A stretch of 64,000 nt of DNA. Origin: Escherichia coli. GTDB taxonomy: Bacteria > Pseudomonadota > Gammaproteobacteria > Enterobacterales > Enterobacteriaceae. The stretch lies in the NCBI RefSeq assembly GCF_044324875.1, contig NZ_CP172185.1; one strand, 5' to 3'. Each line of letters starts with the position of its first letter. The first letter of the stretch is position 1. Below the pieces are notes generated by a model. That model was not told the origin of the DNA. It saw nothing but the letters and a program-made list of their open reading frames with translations, and made no database searches. The position numbers and the translations under genes are program-made. Shown here in pieces: positions 3,422 to 63,322 of this stretch.

Positions 3422-4906
3422 TCAGTCATTCAGTGGAAATAATTCATTGTTGTAACTGGTGTACTCACCTTCAACGGTAAGCAAACTGCCGTTTTTATCA
3501 AGATGCGCCGCATCGAGTTGTCGAGTCTCATTACGCCGCTTCGCATCACGTACCAGTCCATCGCCTACGTAATAAATATAGTGGTCATCATGAGCAAAGG
3601 TATCTGATAATTGACCATTGGCGTATTTAAACCACGTCCATTGGCCTTTCAGTTCAAAATGCTCAACCGTGTCTTCATCAATAAAATACGTATAGCGATC
3701 GTCATGTGCTAAATAATTTAATGGTGTGCCATCGGGGCTTTTATACCACTGCCATTGCCCATTAATATCAAAAATAGTCACATCATCGCTCGCAATGAAA
3801 TAAACTTTATCCCCTACAATATTAACACCTTCCTGTAATTCTTGTTGCGGGTCTGGTAAATGAATGACCGACAGCGTTTTTTCGACCGCAGAAACATACT
3901 TCACCAGATAGAGCGAATCTTTATATTGCGCCACATTCTCCGTCAGCGGGCGAAAATATTCCGGATCAACATCAGGAATAGTCGCAACCCGGCAGTCATT
4001 AGCACGCCTGGAAGCATCACGCGTCAACCATGTTACTTTATCCCGCTGCAGGTCAAACGTACTCCGACAATTTTTACCGAACGCATAACGTTTCTCCCCG
4101 TCTTTATCGCGATAAATTAGCAGTGAACCGGCTATCCAGCGCACAATATGAAAGGTATCCGGATCGGCGTTGATGGCATCTCCATTCACAAAGACCTGTG
4201 ATTTAGTCCGCCAGATTGTATCCCAGGGTCCCGGATTACTTTTGCTTTGGCAGCTATTGGGGGAAAATAAAATAATTCGTCGGTCCCAGGATTTAACGCC
4301 AAGAATAGAATACCCTTGCGCACTGCCCAACCAGTGCCCCTGAAAGTAAATATTGTGACGATCTTTCAGCACATCCGCGGAATCACCTGAACCGCCGACT
4401 TGTTGCAACGAATCCATATCGACCTGCTTTTCGTCGCGATTATCATCCGTGCGTTCACCATCAAAATAGAGACTATCTTTATCGGCGGCAAAACGCCCCC
4501 ACGCGCGGAATGTTGCAACATCAACTTTCGGTGTTCCCGGCGGGTTCTGGACTATTTTCCCTGCCCATAAAATATGGCGGCCATCGGTTAACCAGTCGAA
4601 ACGCCAGCCGCCATTTGACCGATAGCCAGAGAAGGGAGCCACCCGCACAAAATCATTATTGATATCATCAGGTGAATCGTATTCACCATCAGTGCCGTTG
4701 GGTACGCGGCGAAGTTGTTTGAACTTTACCTGCGGCAAATGAATATCCGGAAAATCGATACCGTAACCGTCACTATCTTCAACGATATATTTTGTGCCTT
4801 GCCCCCACGGCTGGTAGTAAAACGCAGCATAAGGCACGCCGGAGCAGGCTATCGAAGCGGTTGAAAATAAAGCCAGTGCGAGACAAACGGGTTTAATTGG
4901 CAACAT
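3422..4906 (-). CDS. Secreted/lipoprotein-like protein of unknown function, island paralog A (494 aa), repeated DK..Y(F/Y) and W.W aromatic motifs
   Basis: Long uninterrupted ORF; N-terminal hydrophobic signal (MLPIKPVCLALALFSTASIACSG); shares several conserved blocks with the upstream gene (WLTDGR.ILWAGK, FAADK.S.YFDG.RTDDN, HWLGSA.G, VDPEYF); absent from K-12 at this locus as I recall. Confidence 0.7.
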   Translation of the reverse strand: MLPIKPVCLALALFSTASIACSGVPYAAFYYQPWGQGTKYIVEDSDGYGIDFPDIHLPQVKFKQLRRVPNGTDGEYDSPDDINNDFVRVAPFSGYRSNGGWRFDWLTDGRHILWAGKIVQNPPGTPKVDVATFRAWGRFAADKDSLYFDGERTDDNRDEKQVDMDSLQQVGGSGDSADVLKDRHNIYFQGHWLGSAQGYSILGVKSWDRRIILFSPNSCQSKSNPGPWDTIWRTKSQVFVNGDAINADPDTFHIVRWIAGSLLIYRDKDGEKRYAFGKNCRSTFDLQRDKVTWLTRDASRRANDCRVATIPDVDPEYFRPLTENVAQYKDSLYLVKYVSAVEKTLSVIHLPDPQQELQEGVNIVGDKVYFIASDDVTIFDINGQWQWYKSPDGTPLNYLAHDDRYTYFIDEDTVEHFELKGQWTWFKYANGQLSDTFAHDDHYIYYVGDGLVRDAKRRNETRQLDAAHLDKNGSLLTVEGEYTSYNNELFPLND

Positions 4907-4939
4907 AGCATCATCCTGAAGCTGTTAGCGTGTAAGAGG

Positions 4940-6103
4940 TTATTTAAATAAGGGTTTCAGACCGCTCGGGGGTTGCTTCACCGTAGACCATTCTGCTGAA
5001 ATGGGGTTGTAACGCAGCCATTCAGTTTGCTCGTAGTGTTTTCCGTCGATTGTGGTTAATCCACTAAGTTCGTGACTGTAGAGTTGCCCGTCTGTAGTGA
5101 TATACATGTAGCCAGTTACCATGCTTTCCCTATCTAATAATTCAAAAACATCCTCTGGCTTGGGTGTTATCAGTTCACCTTCACCTAATGCATTGGTTTT
5201 AACCTTATAGAATTGATCTTTGTAATAGCCTACCGACCCGGTAAGTAAGGTAAAATATTCCGGATCAACTCCTTTAAGCGTTTCATAAACACAATCACTG
5301 CCCGCAGGCGTCGCTTCTTGTTTGAGCCTGGACACATTCTTCAAACCGATATTAAATAACGCACAACTGTGACCAATATCTTCCAACGTATAGTCATGCT
5401 CGCCGCTTTTATCGCGATAAACTAACCGTTCGCCAGGCATCCAGCGGATTATCTGAAAGGTTTTGCGATCGGCGGGCAGCGGCTTGCCATTAACAATCAC
5501 CTGCGAATTTGTCATTACAACAAATTGCAGGGATGAATCATGCCGCAGGATTTGAAACCCGTCAGCGCTGCCCAACCAGTGCCCCTTATGCCAAAGACTA
5601 TTTTTATCACGCAGTAAATTCCAGATGTCCGTCTCTTCAAGCGTTGACATATCCACCTGCTTATCACCGCTATTATCATCGGTACGCTGGCCGTCAAAAT
5701 AGATACTGCGTTTATCAGCAGCGAAAGCGCCGAATGCCTTAAAACTGGCGGCATCGACATTAGGTTCACCGGATGGATTTTTCAGGACTTTGCCTGCCCA
5801 AAGGACAGAACGTCCATCGGTGAGCCAGGTATGCTGGCAATCCCCCTCGTCATCACAGTCGAACTTATCGGGATTAAAATCGGAGAGCAGCCGGGTTTCT
5901 TGTTTATTGGCTAAATTGGCAATGCGCCAGAGGCGGGAAAAATTAACGTCTGGTAATTCGGAGAGGATCTCATCTTCTTTTCCCTTCTGTTCGGCAACGT
6001 AAACCGTGCCTTTTTCATGCTGGCGGTAATAAAAATCCGCGCCCCAGGAAGGTGAAATGGAGAGAGGTAATGCGGCGATTAATAACCAACTGCGCTTAAC
6101 CAT
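4940..6103 (-). CDS. Secreted protein of unknown function, island paralog B (387 aa from MVKRSWLLIAALPLSISPSWGA)
   Basis: Track ORF 4940..6331; start placed at the internal Met that begins a Sec-type signal peptide; paralogous to 3422..4906; lies 33 bp upstream of it on the same strand (probable two-gene operon). Confidence 0.65.
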   Translation of the reverse strand: MVKRSWLLIAALPLSISPSWGADFYYRQHEKGTVYVAEQKGKEDEILSELPDVNFSRLWRIANLANKQETRLLSDFNPDKFDCDDEGDCQHTWLTDGRSVLWAGKVLKNPSGEPNVDAASFKAFGAFAADKRSIYFDGQRTDDNSGDKQVDMSTLEETDIWNLLRDKNSLWHKGHWLGSADGFQILRHDSSLQFVVMTNSQVIVNGKPLPADRKTFQIIRWMPGERLVYRDKSGEHDYTLEDIGHSCALFNIGLKNVSRLKQEATPAGSDCVYETLKGVDPEYFTLLTGSVGYYKDQFYKVKTNALGEGELITPKPEDVFELLDRESMVTGYMYITTDGQLYSHELSGLTTIDGKHYEQTEWLRYNPISAEWSTVKQPPSGLKPLFK

Positions 6104-6195
6104 AGTGAACTCTGCAACGAGTGGCAAAGATTCACGGTAAGCTCGCGCCTGAGGGCTGTCTATGATGGTAGATATTTTTAAGAATATATAAAGAC

Positions 6196-9425: not shown

Positions 9426-9525
9426 ATGAAGGGTCAACCAAAAGCCAGCTAAGGATTGTCTCTTTGATGACCTTACGTCTGGCTTCCAGTGCCTGAGGTG
9501 AAACCATACTGATATGTTGACATCC

Positions 9526-9547
9526 TCCACGCCCTGAAGGACGTGGA
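9526..9547. repeat. IS200/IS605 subterminal hairpin, tnpB-proximal (presumed RE)
   Basis: 6-bp stem TCCACG/CGTGGA with loop CCCTGAAGGA, 25 nt beyond the tnpB stop. Confidence 0.7.
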
Positions 9548-9571
9548 TCCCTGCTACGTTCAGGCTGTCGC

Positions 9572-10768
9572 CTAAATCATTTCGGGGGGTTCCTGCTTCA
9601 ACGAGCGGCCTGACTGCACCATCTCTCCACAGGCAAGAACGGCGTGCCCCGCCGCTAAAATGTTACGAGCGCCATTTACATCGGCGTTCGCTGTATATCC
9701 ACATGCCTGGCATCTGAATTTACTTTGTGACAGGCGATTTTCTTTCGCTGTATGACCACAGCACGCGCAACGCTGGCTTGTGTACGCTGGCGGAACAGCA
9801 AGCACCTGACCGCCACGCCAGAGCTGCTTGTACTCAAGCTGGCGGCGCATTTCATACCAGCCCTGATCCAGTATCGAACGGTTTAAACCTGATTTTGCCC
9901 GGACATTGCGCCCCGGCTGGCTGACCGTACCCGCTGCTGACTTTGACATGTTGCTGACCTTCAAATCCTCAATGACTATCATTGCGTGGTTTTTGCTGAC
10001 GGTCGTTGTGACTTTGTGAAGGTAGTCCCTGCGGATATTTGCGATACAGGAATGCAGTCGCTGTATTTTGCGTTTCTGCTTCTGCCAGTTATTGCTGAAT
10101 TTGACCTTGCGGCTTAACTGTCGCTGAAGTCTCGCCAGCTTCTTCTGGTTTTTCTGAAAACTGTTTACAGGCTCAAAGACTGTGCCATCTGACAGCGTGG
10201 CGAGTTTAGCCACGCCAGCATCCAGCCCGACCATTGATGCTGAAGGGTGAACCGGAGTTGATACTTCATTTTCAGTCTGAATACTGATGTACCACTTACC
10301 GCAGGACTGGCTGACAGTGACATTTTTCACAACACCCGTGACCTGACGGCTATTCCGGTAGCGCATCCAGCCAAGTTTCGGCAGAAAAATACGGCTGTTT
10401 TCCTGATCGAGCTTAACGCCCTGCGGGTAGCGGAATGCATCATTCTGTCCCCGCTTTTTGAATCGGGGAAAAGCAGCCCGCTTCTGGAAGAAGTTTTTGT
10501 AAGCCCGCTCAAGGTCTTTCAGTGACTGTTGCAATGGCTGTGAGGGCGAATCTTTAAGCCATTGCGTTTCAGTGGCGTTTTTCCACTCAACCAGCCAGGA
10601 AGCCATTTTCCCGTAAGGGATGTATTTATTACCGGCCTCATGATTCTCATTCTGACGTGCCAGAGCACGATTGAAAACGAAACGACATGCGCCTGCGAAG
10701 CGCCTCATTTCACGCTCCTGTTGACCACCGGGTCTTAACTGGAATTTAAATGCCTGTAGTCGTTTCAC
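9572..10768 (-). CDS. tnpB: IS200/IS605-family TnpB (OrfB), RuvC-like RNA-guided nuclease family
   Basis: 398 aa; N-terminal [13 protein letters not shown]..., RuvC-I-like IEDLKV, C-terminal zinc finger CACCGH...CQACG and RuvC-III-like DVNGARNI; full length with no internal stops. Confidence 0.9.
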
Positions 10769-10775
10769 AGGCCAA

Positions 10776-11390
10776 ATGATACTTTGGTCTGTGAGAAAAG
10801 AAACCGATATCCGGCGTGGAAGGCATTGTGTTTTCCTGATGCATGTTCACCAGGTCTTTGTCACCAAATACCGACGTCAGATTTTTGACCATGACGCGAC
10901 AGAAAAACTACGCACTTACTTTTCAAATGTATGTGCTGATTTTGAAGCTGAACTGGTTGAAATGGATGGCGAACCAGATCACGTCCATTTGTTAATTAAC
11001 TATCCTCCCAAACTGGCGATATCCAGTCTGGTAAACAGCCTCAAAGGCGTATCGGGTAGGTTACTGCGACGAGATCGACCAGATATTGCAGTCAGGTATT
11101 ACTACAAAGGCGTTTTGTGGAGTCCTGGCTATTTTGCCAGTAGCTGCGGAGGTGCGCCAATATCCGTCATCCGCCAATACATTGAACAACAGCAAACACC
11201 TGATCAGGTGGAAAACCGCGCCTTATATCCCCGCCCTGAAGGACGGGGTTTTACGGCGCACCGGATAAACCAGGCCAAGCGTATGCTGGTTGATCAAATA
11301 ATATCCCCCAAGCGCAGCAATATTAATATTCACCTGCAATGGGTCGATATCTGGCTTAAAAATATTGTGTTTCCTCCCTTCATCCAATAA
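10776..11390 (+). CDS. tnpA: IS200/IS605-family HuH transposase TnpA; ORF reads through the subterminal hairpin, so the functional C-terminus is uncertain
   Basis: HuH motif ([11 protein letters not shown]) and catalytic Tyr region ([22 protein letters not shown]); about 55 extra codons follow and cross the 11229..11248 hairpin. Confidence 0.75.
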
Positions 11391-11483
11391 GGATTCCATT
11401 AACTGCAAGTGCGCATGATTAATTTCTAAGAGACACTGTGATTTTGCATAATGCACACCTTTACTTTGGTTTTCACTATGCAC
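11223..11483 (-). pseudogene. ytfA-like regulator fragment whose 3' end is encoded by IS-end sequence
   Basis: 86-aa ORF at the position where K-12 carries ytfA (as I recall); its last codons overlap the IS hairpin, suggesting the IS inserted into or next to the gene's 3' end. Confidence 0.3.
11229..11248. repeat. IS200/IS605 subterminal hairpin, tnpA-proximal (presumed LE)
   Basis: 5-bp stem CCCCG/CGGGG with the same loop CCCTGAAGGA as the hairpin at 9526..9547. Confidence 0.7.
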
Positions 11484-11832
11484 AATTTTTAAAAACCAGG
11501 GATTAGCAATATAATAATCCCAGGTAAAATCGATGATTTTTTCAATGGCTTTTTGTGGCTGGTTAACCTGCTGATTAACAAACGCACCGATACCGACAGC
11601 GTAGAATAATTACATACCGCACAACAAGAATGTATGGTGTAAGGCGTTGTCAGTCATCTCCCTCCCTGGGTGCATCGTTATATCCGTGATGAGCGATTTT
11701 TGATATTAATATCTTTCACCATCCGCTATTTTCACTACTTCAGAAAACAAACTTATTTTTATTAATATCGATTCTTTTTCTTTGAGCATTTAACTACGAT
11801 ATTTATAAAAAAATTAAACAGGCAAAAATACA

Positions 11833-12627
11833 ATGACATTACCAACCACTATTTATTCATTTCCTGCATATTCACCCCGTTTTTCGTCCACCGACAAACC
11901 AGTAAAATTAAAATTTCATCAATACGCACGCGCTACATTACTTTCAAATCGTGGAAGAGATCATAATTGCGATGGCAGACATACTGTTGAGATCCACAAA
12001 CTAGATCTCTCAGACTGGCAAGCATTCAATAAACTAGCGATGGCGTGTAATGCTTACGATGGAATAACAATGAATGGTGATAATTCTTTTGGATGGAACC
12101 ATGAGGCTACATTAGATAATATTCACGCCCAGAAATACAATAAAGCTTACGCGGGTGCGAGGTTAACCGCAGAACTGAAATATTTATTGCAAGATGTCGA
12201 ATCCTTCGAACCCAACAGTAAATACACAATACACGAGGTTGTTTTGGGTCCAGGTTATGGTACTCCAGACTATACCGGCCAAACGATAGGATACGTTGTA
12301 ACCCTTCCTGCCCAAATGCCTAATTGCTGGTCATCTGAACTACCAACAATCGATCTTTATATCGACCAACTTCGCACTGTTACAGGCGTTTCTAATGCCC
12401 TCGGATTCATCATTGCTGCATTGCTAAACGCGTATTCTGATTTACCCCATGATTTGAAAATTGGTCTGCGTTCCTTATCAAGTTCAGCAGCAATCTACTC
12501 GGGTTTGGGTTTCGAGCGAGTGCCGCAGGACCGAGACATAAGGTGCGATCATATGCATCTAACGCCAGCAAACCATCCTGAATTATGGACACAAGAGAAT
12601 GGTGAATGGATCTACTTACGAAACTAA
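11833..12627 (+). CDS. yjfZ: Uncharacterized protein YjfZ
   Basis: 264 aa ORF at the expected syntenic position next to rplI, preceded by a very AT-rich upstream region (11650..11832). Confidence 0.7.
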   Translation: MTLPTTIYSFPAYSPRFSSTDKPVKLKFHQYARATLLSNRGRDHNCDGRHTVEIHKLDLSDWQAFNKLAMACNAYDGITMNGDNSFGWNHEATLDNIHAQKYNKAYAGARLTAELKYLLQDVESFEPNSKYTIHEVVLGPGYGTPDYTGQTIGYVVTLPAQMPNCWSSELPTIDLYIDQLRTVTGVSNALGFIIAALLNAYSDLPHDLKIGLRSLSSSAAIYSGLGFERVPQDRDIRCDHMHLTPANHPELWTQENGEWIYLRN

Positions 12628-12650
12628 TACCTGACGAAAAATAGAAAGCA

Positions 12651-13741: not shown

Positions 13742-14155
<414 letters not shown>

Positions 14156-14463
14156 TTATTCAGCCTCCTGTCTGGGTCAGCCGAATCCCGGGGAGGCAAG
14201 GAACGTGTTAAAGGTCGGCTGAAAAATGACGCGTTATAGTACTGACATACCCCGCTAAACTCAAGGCCAGCCGACAAATAAATCTCATCTTTCACCAAAT
14301 CGTACTAACACGCTGATTTGAAGTTCATCACACTTCATCATGGTGTTTTTTTGAACAACTGCATCAGAAATGGTCACCATCAACTTCTTTATCATTGATT
14401 AAAATTAAATCAGAAGATCATCACAGAGGAGAGCACACAAAGTCAGCCGTTGAGGAGGTATCT

Positions 14464-46507: not shown

Positions 46508-46583
<76 letters not shown>

Positions 46584-46618
46584 TTGGGTGGTCTGTGCTT
46601 TACAGCACTTTCAAATTT

Positions 46619-46694
<76 letters not shown>

Positions 46695-46851
46695 TTAATC
46701 TTCGTCTTTCGAACCGCTACTGCCTTGGCTGCCTTCACTCACCTTAGTCACTTACTTTTGTAAGCTCCCAAGGATTCGTTCAGTTGCCGCCTTGTCGCAA
46801 TTCGAAATACTGCGATTGGGTGGTCTGTGCTTTGCAGCACTTTTCAAATTT

Positions 46852-46927
<76 letters not shown>

Positions 46928-61299: not shown

Positions 61300-61833
61300 A
61301 TGCGCCTGCTCCCTCTCGTTGCCGCAGCGACAGCTGCATTTCTGGTCGTTGCCTGCAGTTCTCCTACGCCGCCCCGTGGCGTGACAGTAGTGAATAATTT
61401 CGATGCTAAACGCTATCTCGGTACCTGGTATGAGATTGCCCGTTTTGATCACCGCTTTGAACGTGGACTGGAAAAAGTCACCGCAACATACAGCCTGCGG
61501 GATGACGGCGGCCTGAATGTCATTAATAAAGGCTATAACCCTGACAGAGAAATGTGGCAGCAGAGTGAAGGGAAAGCGTACTTTACCGGCGCACCAACTC
61601 GCGCTGCGCTGAAAGTGTCATTCTTTGGTCCTTTCTATGGCGGTTATAACGTTATTGCACTCGATCGGGAATACCGCCATGCGCTGGTTTGCGGCCCGGA
61701 CCGCGACTACCTGTGGATACTCTCCCGCACGCCAACCATTTCTGACGAAGTGAAACAGGAGATGCTGGCAGTCGCGACCCGGGAAGGGTTTGATGTCAGT
61801 AAGTTTATTTGGGTACAGCAGCCCGGTAGTTAG
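61300..61833 (+). CDS. blc: Outer-membrane lipocalin Blc
   Basis: 177 aa, lipobox VVACSS, lipocalin motif GTWYEIAR. Confidence 0.95.
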
Positions 61834-62147
61834 TGAGTGCTGAGTTTCAGACCAATAATCCCCAATACGATTAACGCCAGACTCGCCAGGCGCATCGGGT
61901 TAGCGGACTCGCCGAGCAGCACAATGCCGGTGATGGCCGCGCCGACTGCGCCAATACCCGTCCACACGGCATAAGCCGTCCCTACTGGTAACGATTTCAT
62001 CGCCCAGGCAAGTAGCGCCATACTGACAATCATCGCCGTCACAGTAATAACACTTGGCGTCAAACGACTAAAGCCGTGGGTATATTTCAGGCCAACGGCC
62101 CATACCACTTCCAGCAGACCAGCAATAACTAAGATAATCCAGGACAT
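61830..62147 (-). CDS. sugE: SMR-family guanidinium exporter Gdx (SugE)
   Basis: Track ORF 61830..62210; start at [22 protein letters not shown] gives 105 aa; four-TM SMR protein with the conserved Glu in TM1. Confidence 0.93.
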
Positions 62148-62165
62148 ATCAGGCTCCGGAGAATT

Positions 62166-62210
62166 GGGGCCGTCCCCGGTGAAAAGAGGCGTTTGCAGGT
62201 CGTCCTGCAA
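62166..62210 (-). ncRNA. Guanidine-II riboswitch (mini-ykkC) in the sugE 5' leader
   Basis: On the minus-strand transcript: two short GC hairpins with ACGR tetraloops, ttgcagg-ACGA-cctgcaa and gggg-ACGG-cccc, separated by about 10 nt and ending about 20 nt before the sugE ATG. Confidence 0.8.
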
Positions 62211-62321
62211 AGCTGATGGTTGAACGGATATTTTGCCAGGTGGCAGGGGAATTTCAACTATTACCTTTGTGACTATCGCAAAAAAACAAACGGCACGACA
62301 TAACTGTCGTACCGTTATTGC

Positions 62322-62468
62322 TTACTGCTGCGCTTTCGTTGCTGCGCCAGAAATCGCGTTACCGCCATCAGAAATGTCTTCACCAACGCCACGCGTGGTG
62401 TTGCAGGCAGTTAATACTGTTGAAAGCACCAGAACAGAAAAGATCGCTGCAATTGTCTTCTTCACCAT
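62322..62468 (-). CDS. ecnB: Entericidin B (small lipoprotein)
   Basis: Manual translation of the minus strand gives [48 protein letters not shown] (48 aa, lipobox LTAC); absent from the ORF track, presumably because of its short length. Confidence 0.9.
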
Positions 62469-62578
62469 AACGTCTTCCTTTTAGGTAATGTTATTTATGT
62501 TTGCCTATAGCAAATTAATAATAGACAACATCACCAAAAATGATGGAAATCTGATGATTTTTCGGAAGAGAAGAAAAA

Positions 62579-62704
62579 TTAGCTGGCAGCGCGGGAGATG
62601 GAATTACCGAGATGTTTAATGTCTTCACCGAAACCGCGAGCGGTGTTACAGCCCGTGAGCAGCGCACTGGCAAGCAAAACAAGAACGATAAGGCGTTTCA
62701 TCAT
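62579..62704 (-). CDS. ecnA: Entericidin A (small lipoprotein)
   Basis: Manual translation gives MMKRLIVLVLLASALLTGCNTARGFGEDIKHLGNSISRAAS (41 aa, lipobox LTGC). Confidence 0.9.
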   Translation of the reverse strand: MMKRLIVLVLLASALLTGCNTARGFGEDIKHLGNSISRAAS

Positions 62705-62755
62705 CTCTGGCCTGAATAAGTGATGGTGCAGCCTGCAGGCCGCACCACAACCGCA

Positions 62756-63322
62756 TTACTTCACGCGAGAGACGTATTCACCAGAGCGGGTATCCACTTT
62801 GATGACTTCGCCGATCTGCACGAACAGCGGAACTTTAACCACAGCGCCAGTAGACAGGGTAGCTGGTTTGCCGCCAGTACCTGCGGTATCACCTTTCAGG
62901 CCCGGATCGGTATCAACGATTTCCAGTTCAACGAAGTTCGGCGGAGTAACGGAGATCGGCTGACCATTCCACAGAGTTACGATACACTCTGCCTGATCAA
63001 GCAGCCATTTCGCGTTGTCGCCAATTGCTTTTGCGTCAGCAGACAGCTGCTCGAAAGTTTCGTTGTTCATGAAGTGCCAGAACTCACCGTCGTTGTACAG
63101 GTAAGTCAGGTTCATATCGACAACATCAGCGCCTTCAGCGGAATCAGTAGATTTGAAGGTTTTTTCTACGCGAGTACCGGTCAGCAGACGACGCAGTTTA
63201 ACGCGAGCAAATGCCTGGCCTTTACCCGGTTTTACGAATTCACTCGCTTCAACCGCGTAAGGTTCGCCGTCTAACATGATTTTAAGACCAGCACGAAAAT
63301 CGTTGCTATAGTACGTTGCCAT
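62756..63322 (-). CDS. efp: Elongation factor P
   Basis: 188 aa, [58 protein letters not shown]... (modified Lys34 in the KPGKGQA loop). Confidence 0.98.

Follow-up and report, generated by a model that had tools for sequence, protein, structure and literature searches.

Two very short minus-strand open reading frames between efp and sugE, in a 64,000-nucleotide stretch of Escherichia coli DNA (assembly GCF_044324875.1, contig NZ_CP172185.1; hereafter the window), raise two questions: whether they are the entericidin genes ecnA and ecnB, and, if they are, whether their products behave as the bacteriolytic lipoprotein and antidote that their annotation implies.

The ecnAB locus and its conservation

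When open reading frames are listed down to a minimum of 20 aa, ecnA lies at 62579..62704 (−; 41 aa and a stop, ATG start; MMKRLIVLVLLASALLTGCNTARGFGEDIKHLGNSISRAAS) and ecnB at 62322..62468 (−; 48 aa and a stop), with efp (62756..63322, −) flanking ecnA and sugE, also called gdx (61830..62147, −), on the ecnB side. An earlier note on this DNA had described a minus-strand pair of 41 and 48 aa with near-identical mature motifs in this position, and its coordinates, strand, lengths and quoted motifs are all exact, CNTARGFGEDI being present in the 41-aa protein and the corresponding motif in the 48-aa protein. The placement between efp and sugE agrees with the ORFs of the window and with the RefSeq annotation of a 100%-identical locus, and translation of both frames gives zero frameshifts and zero internal stops. 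The note had also called the pair invisible to its ORF track, and rightly so: both genes were missed because they are shorter than the ORF tool's default threshold of 60 aa.

Both proteins match Pfam PF08085 (Entericidin EcnA/B) across the whole profile (1-20 of 20), EcnA with 26.5 bits and EcnB with 30.2 bits against a gathering score of 23.3, and in each the domain begins 2 residues past the lipobox cysteine. The NCBIfam models tell them apart: NF007319 (lipoprotein antitoxin entericidin A) gives EcnA 112.7 bits over residues 1-41 of 41 (cut-off 86) and NF007487 (lipoprotein toxin entericidin B) gives EcnB 121.9 bits over 1-48 of 48 (cut-off 94), with much lower cross-scores of 43.3 bits for the EcnB model on EcnA and 46.5 bits for the EcnA model on EcnB. 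The match of the entericidin precursors to LPAM_1 is sub-threshold. At 52% identity (BLASTP, E 2e-13), EcnA and EcnB are paralogues, and RefSeq labels their 100%-identical counterparts in strain 2014C-3338 “lipoprotein antitoxin entericidin A” and “lipoprotein toxin entericidin B.”

Small open reading frames are abundant here, with 54 of at least 20 aa in a 3.5-kb region, and a loose PROSITE-like lipobox rule matches 14 of the 622 window ORFs of at least 30 aa, so neither small size nor a lipobox is evidence by itself. When the window is aligned with 8 further E. coli loci, third codon positions hold 17 of the 18 variable coding sites (binomial P = 9.6e-8; 9 E. coli genomes), 11 of 12 in ecnA and 6 of 6 in ecnB. 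Opposite-strand ORFs, among them one of 83 aa at 62233..62484 (+), were considered as the coding frames and rejected, since the synonymous-type variation all fits the minus-strand frames.

NCBIfam equivalogs, Pfam PF08085, RefSeq labels and K-12 gene order all agree on the identity that the earlier note had proposed, and it is virtually certain that the window holds the E. coli chromosomal locus for the entericidins, ecnAB, intact and where it normally lies, between efp and sugE/gdx. These are well-known genes that RefSeq already annotates, and there is nothing new in the finding; as textbook E. coli core genes, they give the window little significance of its own. The lesson is one of method: with an ORF cut-off of 60 aa, small proteins that are real, conserved and highly expressed go unseen, and a first-stage reader can recover such genes from sequence motifs alone.

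The 651-bp stretch 62150..62800, labelled ecnB, ecnA and efp by RefSeq, is present in 5425 of 5426 complete E. coli genomes, and the window's version is matched at 99% or better in 639 of the 5425. Strain 2014C-3338 and K-12 MG1655 share the gene order frdABCD-ampC-blc-sugE(gdx)-ecnB-ecnA-efp-epmB. The K-12 locus (ecnA b4410, ecnB b4411) runs efp-ecnA-ecnB-gdx(sugE)-blc, as the window does, with the same lengths (41 and 48 aa), the same 110-bp spacer and terminator and an identical EcnB protein; it differs from the window at 7 of 126 nt in ecnA, 1 of 147 nt in ecnB and 2 of 110 spacer positions, and its EcnA has Thr14 where the window has Ala14. The window locus is the K-12 locus save for this one conservative signal-peptide substitution and synonymous changes.

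The window's EcnB is WP_000239596.1, universal in E. coli and identical across the 9 genomes compared. EcnA is a minority allele, WP_000977754.1 (Ala14), 7 of the 8 other loci compared carrying WP_000977757.1 (Thr14); T14A is the sole EcnA replacement among the 9 loci and sits in the hydrophobic core of the signal peptide, and no functional difference between the two forms is expected. The spacer differs from that of other E. coli at just 1-2 of 110 positions. Against K-12 and most strains, the window's ecnA differs at 6-10 of 126 nt, nearly all of them synonymous, whereas ecnB mostly differs at 1-2 of 147, a contrast suggesting that this ecnA belongs to a separate allele lineage or lies in a small patch of recombination.

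Salmonella and Klebsiella pneumoniae likewise carry a tandem minus-strand ecnA-ecnB between efp and sugE, and their EcnB shares 44-46 of 48 residues with that of E. coli. Among the three genera, ecnB shows 24-30 nucleotide differences and only 2-4 residue differences, and the core C-N-T-x-R-G-x-G-E-D-I...G...I-S is invariant in all six EcnA and EcnB proteins. The Salmonella and Klebsiella orthologues of EcnA, of 43-44 aa, have more divergent signal peptides and are labelled only “entericidin A/B family lipoprotein.” In the Salmonella-type locus seen on plasmid pPJT1-452kb, ecnB and sugE are separated by ecnR, a gene for a LuxR-type regulator that is absent in E. coli and Klebsiella.

Several rarer arrangements were also seen. 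E. coli UPEC129 naturally lacks ecnA and ecnB: a clean deletion has brought sugE to about 100 bp from efp, so that the pair is dispensable. E. coli EC190329 has IS200C inserted between ecnB and sugE. In some E. coli (2 loci, at the place matching window 62322..62330), six bases at the end of ecnB, AGCAAT, are duplicated in tandem; the reading frame then reaches a TAG stop earlier, and the protein is unchanged (...KAQQ). An evolution study found ecnB to be a frequent boundary of ampC amplicons (PMC12625342).

In a plasmid collection, ecnAB has 13 matches, mostly mislabelled chromosomes or chromosome-sized records (several of 4.8-5.4 Mb). The conjugative Salmonella IncHI2 megaplasmid pPJT1-452kb carries a chromosomal-type segment, blc-sugE-ecnR-ecnB-ecnA-efp-epmB, and a 5.3-kb linear Klebsiella oxytoca record, “plasmid unnamed16,” consists of an E. 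coli frdCD-ampC-blc-sugE-ecnB-ecnA fragment and is probably contamination or misassembly. The idea of ecnAB as a mobile addiction module was rejected because the plasmid matches are mislabelled chromosomes or chromosomal segments.

Predicted export and control of EcnA and EcnB

In both precursors a basic N-terminus, with K/R among the first 7 residues, leads into a hydrophobic core and then a lipobox, so that the lipoprotein signal peptides claimed for them are borne out by the lipobox rule. The predicted signal peptide of EcnA spans residues 1-18 (62651..62704, −) and ends in the lipobox L-T-G-C, with the codon of the lipidated Cys19 at 62648..62650 (−); that of EcnB spans residues 1-21 (62406..62468, −) and ends in L-T-A-C, with the Cys22 codon at 62403..62405 (−). 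As pre-lipoproteins, the two would be exported through Sec, receive a diacylglyceryl modification (Lgt) at Cys19 and Cys22, respectively, be cleaved by signal peptidase II (LspA) and then be N-acylated (Lnt), yielding lipopeptides 23 and 27 residues long. Because the +2 residue is Asn, not Asp, in both EcnA and EcnB, the standard rule for Lol sorting predicts transport of both mature lipopeptides to the outer membrane.

Mature EcnA (23 aa, CNTARGFGEDIKHLGNSISRAAS) has a net charge of +1 and mature EcnB (27 aa) a net charge of −1. The best 11-mer of mature EcnA reaches a hydrophobic moment of 0.75, attained by 1.7% of shuffles, and marks a clear amphipathic segment; the Gly-rich mature EcnB reaches 0.55, attained by 8.9% of shuffles, a weak amphipathic signal. 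Comparison of EcnB with solved structures gave no match at E up to 1.

The 110-bp, AT-rich spacer between the genes (62469..62578, −) is where the ecnB promoter and leader would lie, and ecnB appears to be driven separately from ecnA by a sigma-38-dependent, OmpR-repressed promoter of its own. PMC5389655 describes an ecnB promoter on which sigma-38 polymerase is active and sigma-70 polymerase works poorly, overlapped by an OmpR repressor site and bearing a −10-like pause motif, with a critical A that was mutated at +5 and a pause at +17/+18, 10-12 nt past the motif. We infer from the spacer sequence a candidate sigma-38 −10 element, C-TATTAT, at 62524..62518 (−) and, downstream of it, a −10-like pause element, TGCTATAGG, at 62512..62504 (−), a placement that reproduces the +5 and +17/+18 landmarks and, from the position of the pause element, implies a transcription start near 62510-62512. 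A good match to a Shine-Dalgarno sequence, AAGGAAG, follows at 62480..62474 (−). A sigma-70 promoter scan of the spacer gave no match, as would be expected of a sigma-38 promoter with a poor −35. The terminator scan called nothing between ecnA and ecnB and, since no terminator separates them, some co-transcription is possible.

A second layer of control is post-transcriptional: the sigma-E-dependent small RNA MicA represses ecnB by pairing over its first codons. The predicted site, 62437..62467 (−), runs from the second base of the start codon to codon 11 and pairs with MicA nt 1-28; with the K-12 sequence of MicA, RNAduplex gives −24.2 kcal/mol for the MicA 5' domain on ecnB, a value that none of 1000 shuffled targets reached (their mean was −12.6, sd 2.8). 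Experiments have shown that MicA, acting through its 5' domain, represses ecnB mRNA (PMC3551931). The 5' region of ecnA reaches −20.9 kcal/mol with MicA only through a long interior loop.

After ecnB lies an intrinsic terminator (62280..62316, −), with an 11-12 bp G+C-rich stem and a 4-nt loop (62316..62289) and then the T-run TTTGTTTTTTT. Its fold of −21.5 kcal/mol (z = −7.1) was equalled by 0 of 200 shuffles, the terminator scan also calls it, and strain differences within it are confined to the loop. This strong terminator isolates ecnB from the sugE promoter and guanidine-II riboswitch.

For ecnA, the picture is one of weak expression. The 51-bp spacer between efp and ecnA holds a hairpin at 62719..62752 (−) that is stable (−22.6 kcal/mol, z = −2.2) and has zero variable sites in 9 genomes; with no U-tract behind it, it is not a canonical terminator, and the terminator scan did not call it. 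Read-through from efp into ecnA past this hairpin may occur. Ahead of ATGATG, the ecnA Shine-Dalgarno sequence is weak (CAGGCCAGAG), and ecnA is probably expressed through low-level or read-through transcription from efp combined with this weak ribosome-binding site.

Toxin and antidote, or envelope lipoproteins

The description of the pair as a bacteriolytic lipoprotein and its antidote, which the earlier note took over, matches the annotation and also Bishop et al. 1998, in the summaries that PMC7296081 and PMC5105897 give of that work. As these and bioRxiv 10.1101/505081 report it, overproduced EcnB lysed stationary-phase cells at high osmolarity, and in the account of PMC7296081, ecnA in cis relieved that lysis. 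In the published model, too much EcnB would destabilise the envelope so that stationary-phase cells lyse at high osmolarity, an effect that would be countered by EcnA, which resembles EcnB but has the opposite net charge. Whether this classical, literature-based mechanism holds is to us nearly an even call, leaning slightly against it. The toxin/antidote label is inherited essentially from the single study of 1998, and its correctness has already been questioned in later literature (PMC7296081, PMC12529367). As an account of the locus as a whole, an ecnAB locus with two separately regulated, paralogous pre-lipoproteins, to which the published toxin/antidote model applies, is very probably the best explanation.

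The later evidence bears on how strict such a toxin/antidote pair could be. An ecnA deletion mutant of the Keio collection exists and is viable, though the loss of a true antitoxin should do harm (PMC7296081). Cells in minimal medium contain about 70,000 copies of EcnB each and are not killed, and the protein is among the small proteins most commonly detected by mass spectrometry, EcnA not being among those detected (PMC12529367). Induction of the sigma-S regulon includes ecnB and not ecnA, and inhibition of LolCDE raises ecnB 7-13 fold, again without ecnA (PMC5105897). The viable ecnA mutant, the abundance of EcnB, this ecnB-only induction, the weak amphipathicity of EcnB, the non-lytic nature of an Agrobacterium homologue and the loss of the pair from UPEC129 all speak against a strict addiction module.

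Nor do the entericidins resemble classical toxin-antitoxin modules more than loosely. As in mazEF, the original comparison, there are two small adjacent genes, and one product is reported to counteract the other. In the entericidin pair, however, both products are exported lipoproteins and paralogues of each other, and the “toxin” gene ecnB is controlled by a separate stress promoter and a small RNA, whereas classical modules are co-transcribed and autoregulated; the knockout of the antitoxin gene ecnA is, moreover, viable (PMC7296081). Compared with defence and toxin-antitoxin protein families, EcnA and EcnB had no match beyond the entericidin models.

If ecnA and ecnB are genuine entericidin genes but no toxin-antitoxin pair, then EcnB would be an abundant lipoprotein of the outer membrane and its vesicles with a non-lethal envelope or surface role, induced by stress under sigma-S and MicA control and serving a structural or surface function in stationary-phase envelopes; EcnA, a paralogue with weak expression, would tune EcnB, and the lysis of 1998 would be an overexpression artefact. 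Artefacts of this kind are common when small lipoproteins are overexpressed. We regard this alternative as quite possible, if some way short of even. The viable Keio mutant and the copy number of EcnB both favour it, as do the Asn at +2 with its predicted outer-membrane sorting, the separate promoters and differing regulation of the two genes and the weak amphipathicity of EcnB. In several species, outer-membrane vesicles contain EcnB homologues, and that of Agrobacterium, exposed at the surface and associated with vesicles, showed no lytic or pore-forming activity (PMC7296081); the targets of MicA, for their part, are typically outer-membrane proteins (PMC3551931). This has to be set against the lysis on overproduction and its relief by ecnA in cis, and against the bacteriolytic activity on Flavobacterium of a secreted EcnB homologue from Enterobacter C6-6 (Schubiger 2015), both as relayed by PMC7296081. 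The conservation of the tandem pair across Enterobacteriaceae and the joint loss of both genes in UPEC129 also count against it. Should the non-lethal role prove right, the long-standing “programmed cell death” annotation carried by every E. coli genome would be wrong.

A different possibility is that EcnB acts outward, as a lipopeptide released on vesicles, for example, against competitors, with EcnA as the immunity protein of the producer, in the manner of a bacteriocin and not of programmed death. The toxin/immunity-like tandem arrangement would suit this, and PMC7296081 relays that the secreted homologue, of 3 kDa, is active against Flavobacterium psychrophilum and that EcnB homologues are present in vesicles. 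We consider it improbable. There are no adjacent export or bacteriocin-release genes, the neighbours being efp and sugE, and the locus is core, not accessory, given its near-universal presence in E. coli and its invariant EcnB. Typical bacteriocin/immunity pairs diversify. Many bacteria, in addition, carry ecnB-like genes without ecnA (PMC7296081).

The weakest alternative, that both frames are chance, non-genic open frames in intergenic DNA, could appeal to the commonness of small ORFs and lipobox matches counted above, and was rejected as next to impossible in view of the curated family cut-offs that both proteins surpass, their paralogy, the third-position bias of their substitutions, the retention of the proteins across genera despite about 20% DNA divergence and the detection of EcnB peptides by mass spectrometry (PMC12529367).

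Other features of the window

Directly upstream of sugE/gdx, at 62165..62211 (−), lies a guanidine-II (mini-ykkC) riboswitch aptamer, a known element that scores 50.4 bits against a gathering score of 32, with a promoter-like site ahead of it at 62257..62230. The mechanical ORF list starts sugE at a TTG at 62210 (126 aa), running through the riboswitch, and RefSeq starts it at the ATG at 62147 (105 aa).

Farther away, the interval 9513..12645 between ytfB and yjfZ/rplI holds an IS200/IS605-type remnant, with a TnpB/InsQ-like ORF at 9572..10768 (−) and a truncated tnpA from 10776 (+), which adjoins a truncated TetR-family gene. The site varies between strains: in 2014C-3338 it is occupied by another island, about 10 kb long, that carries metabolic genes and a frameshifted hipA-like toxin. 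Between ytfE and cycA, at 3422..6113 (−), are two accessory genes that have no function label in the matching RefSeq record, one for a 494-aa hypothetical protein (lipobox Cys21) and one for a DKNYY-domain protein. The RpsF leader at 14135..14219 (−; 110 bits) and three identical-scoring tRNA genes at 46511..46927 (−), tRNA-Gly in a related genome, are ordinary core features.
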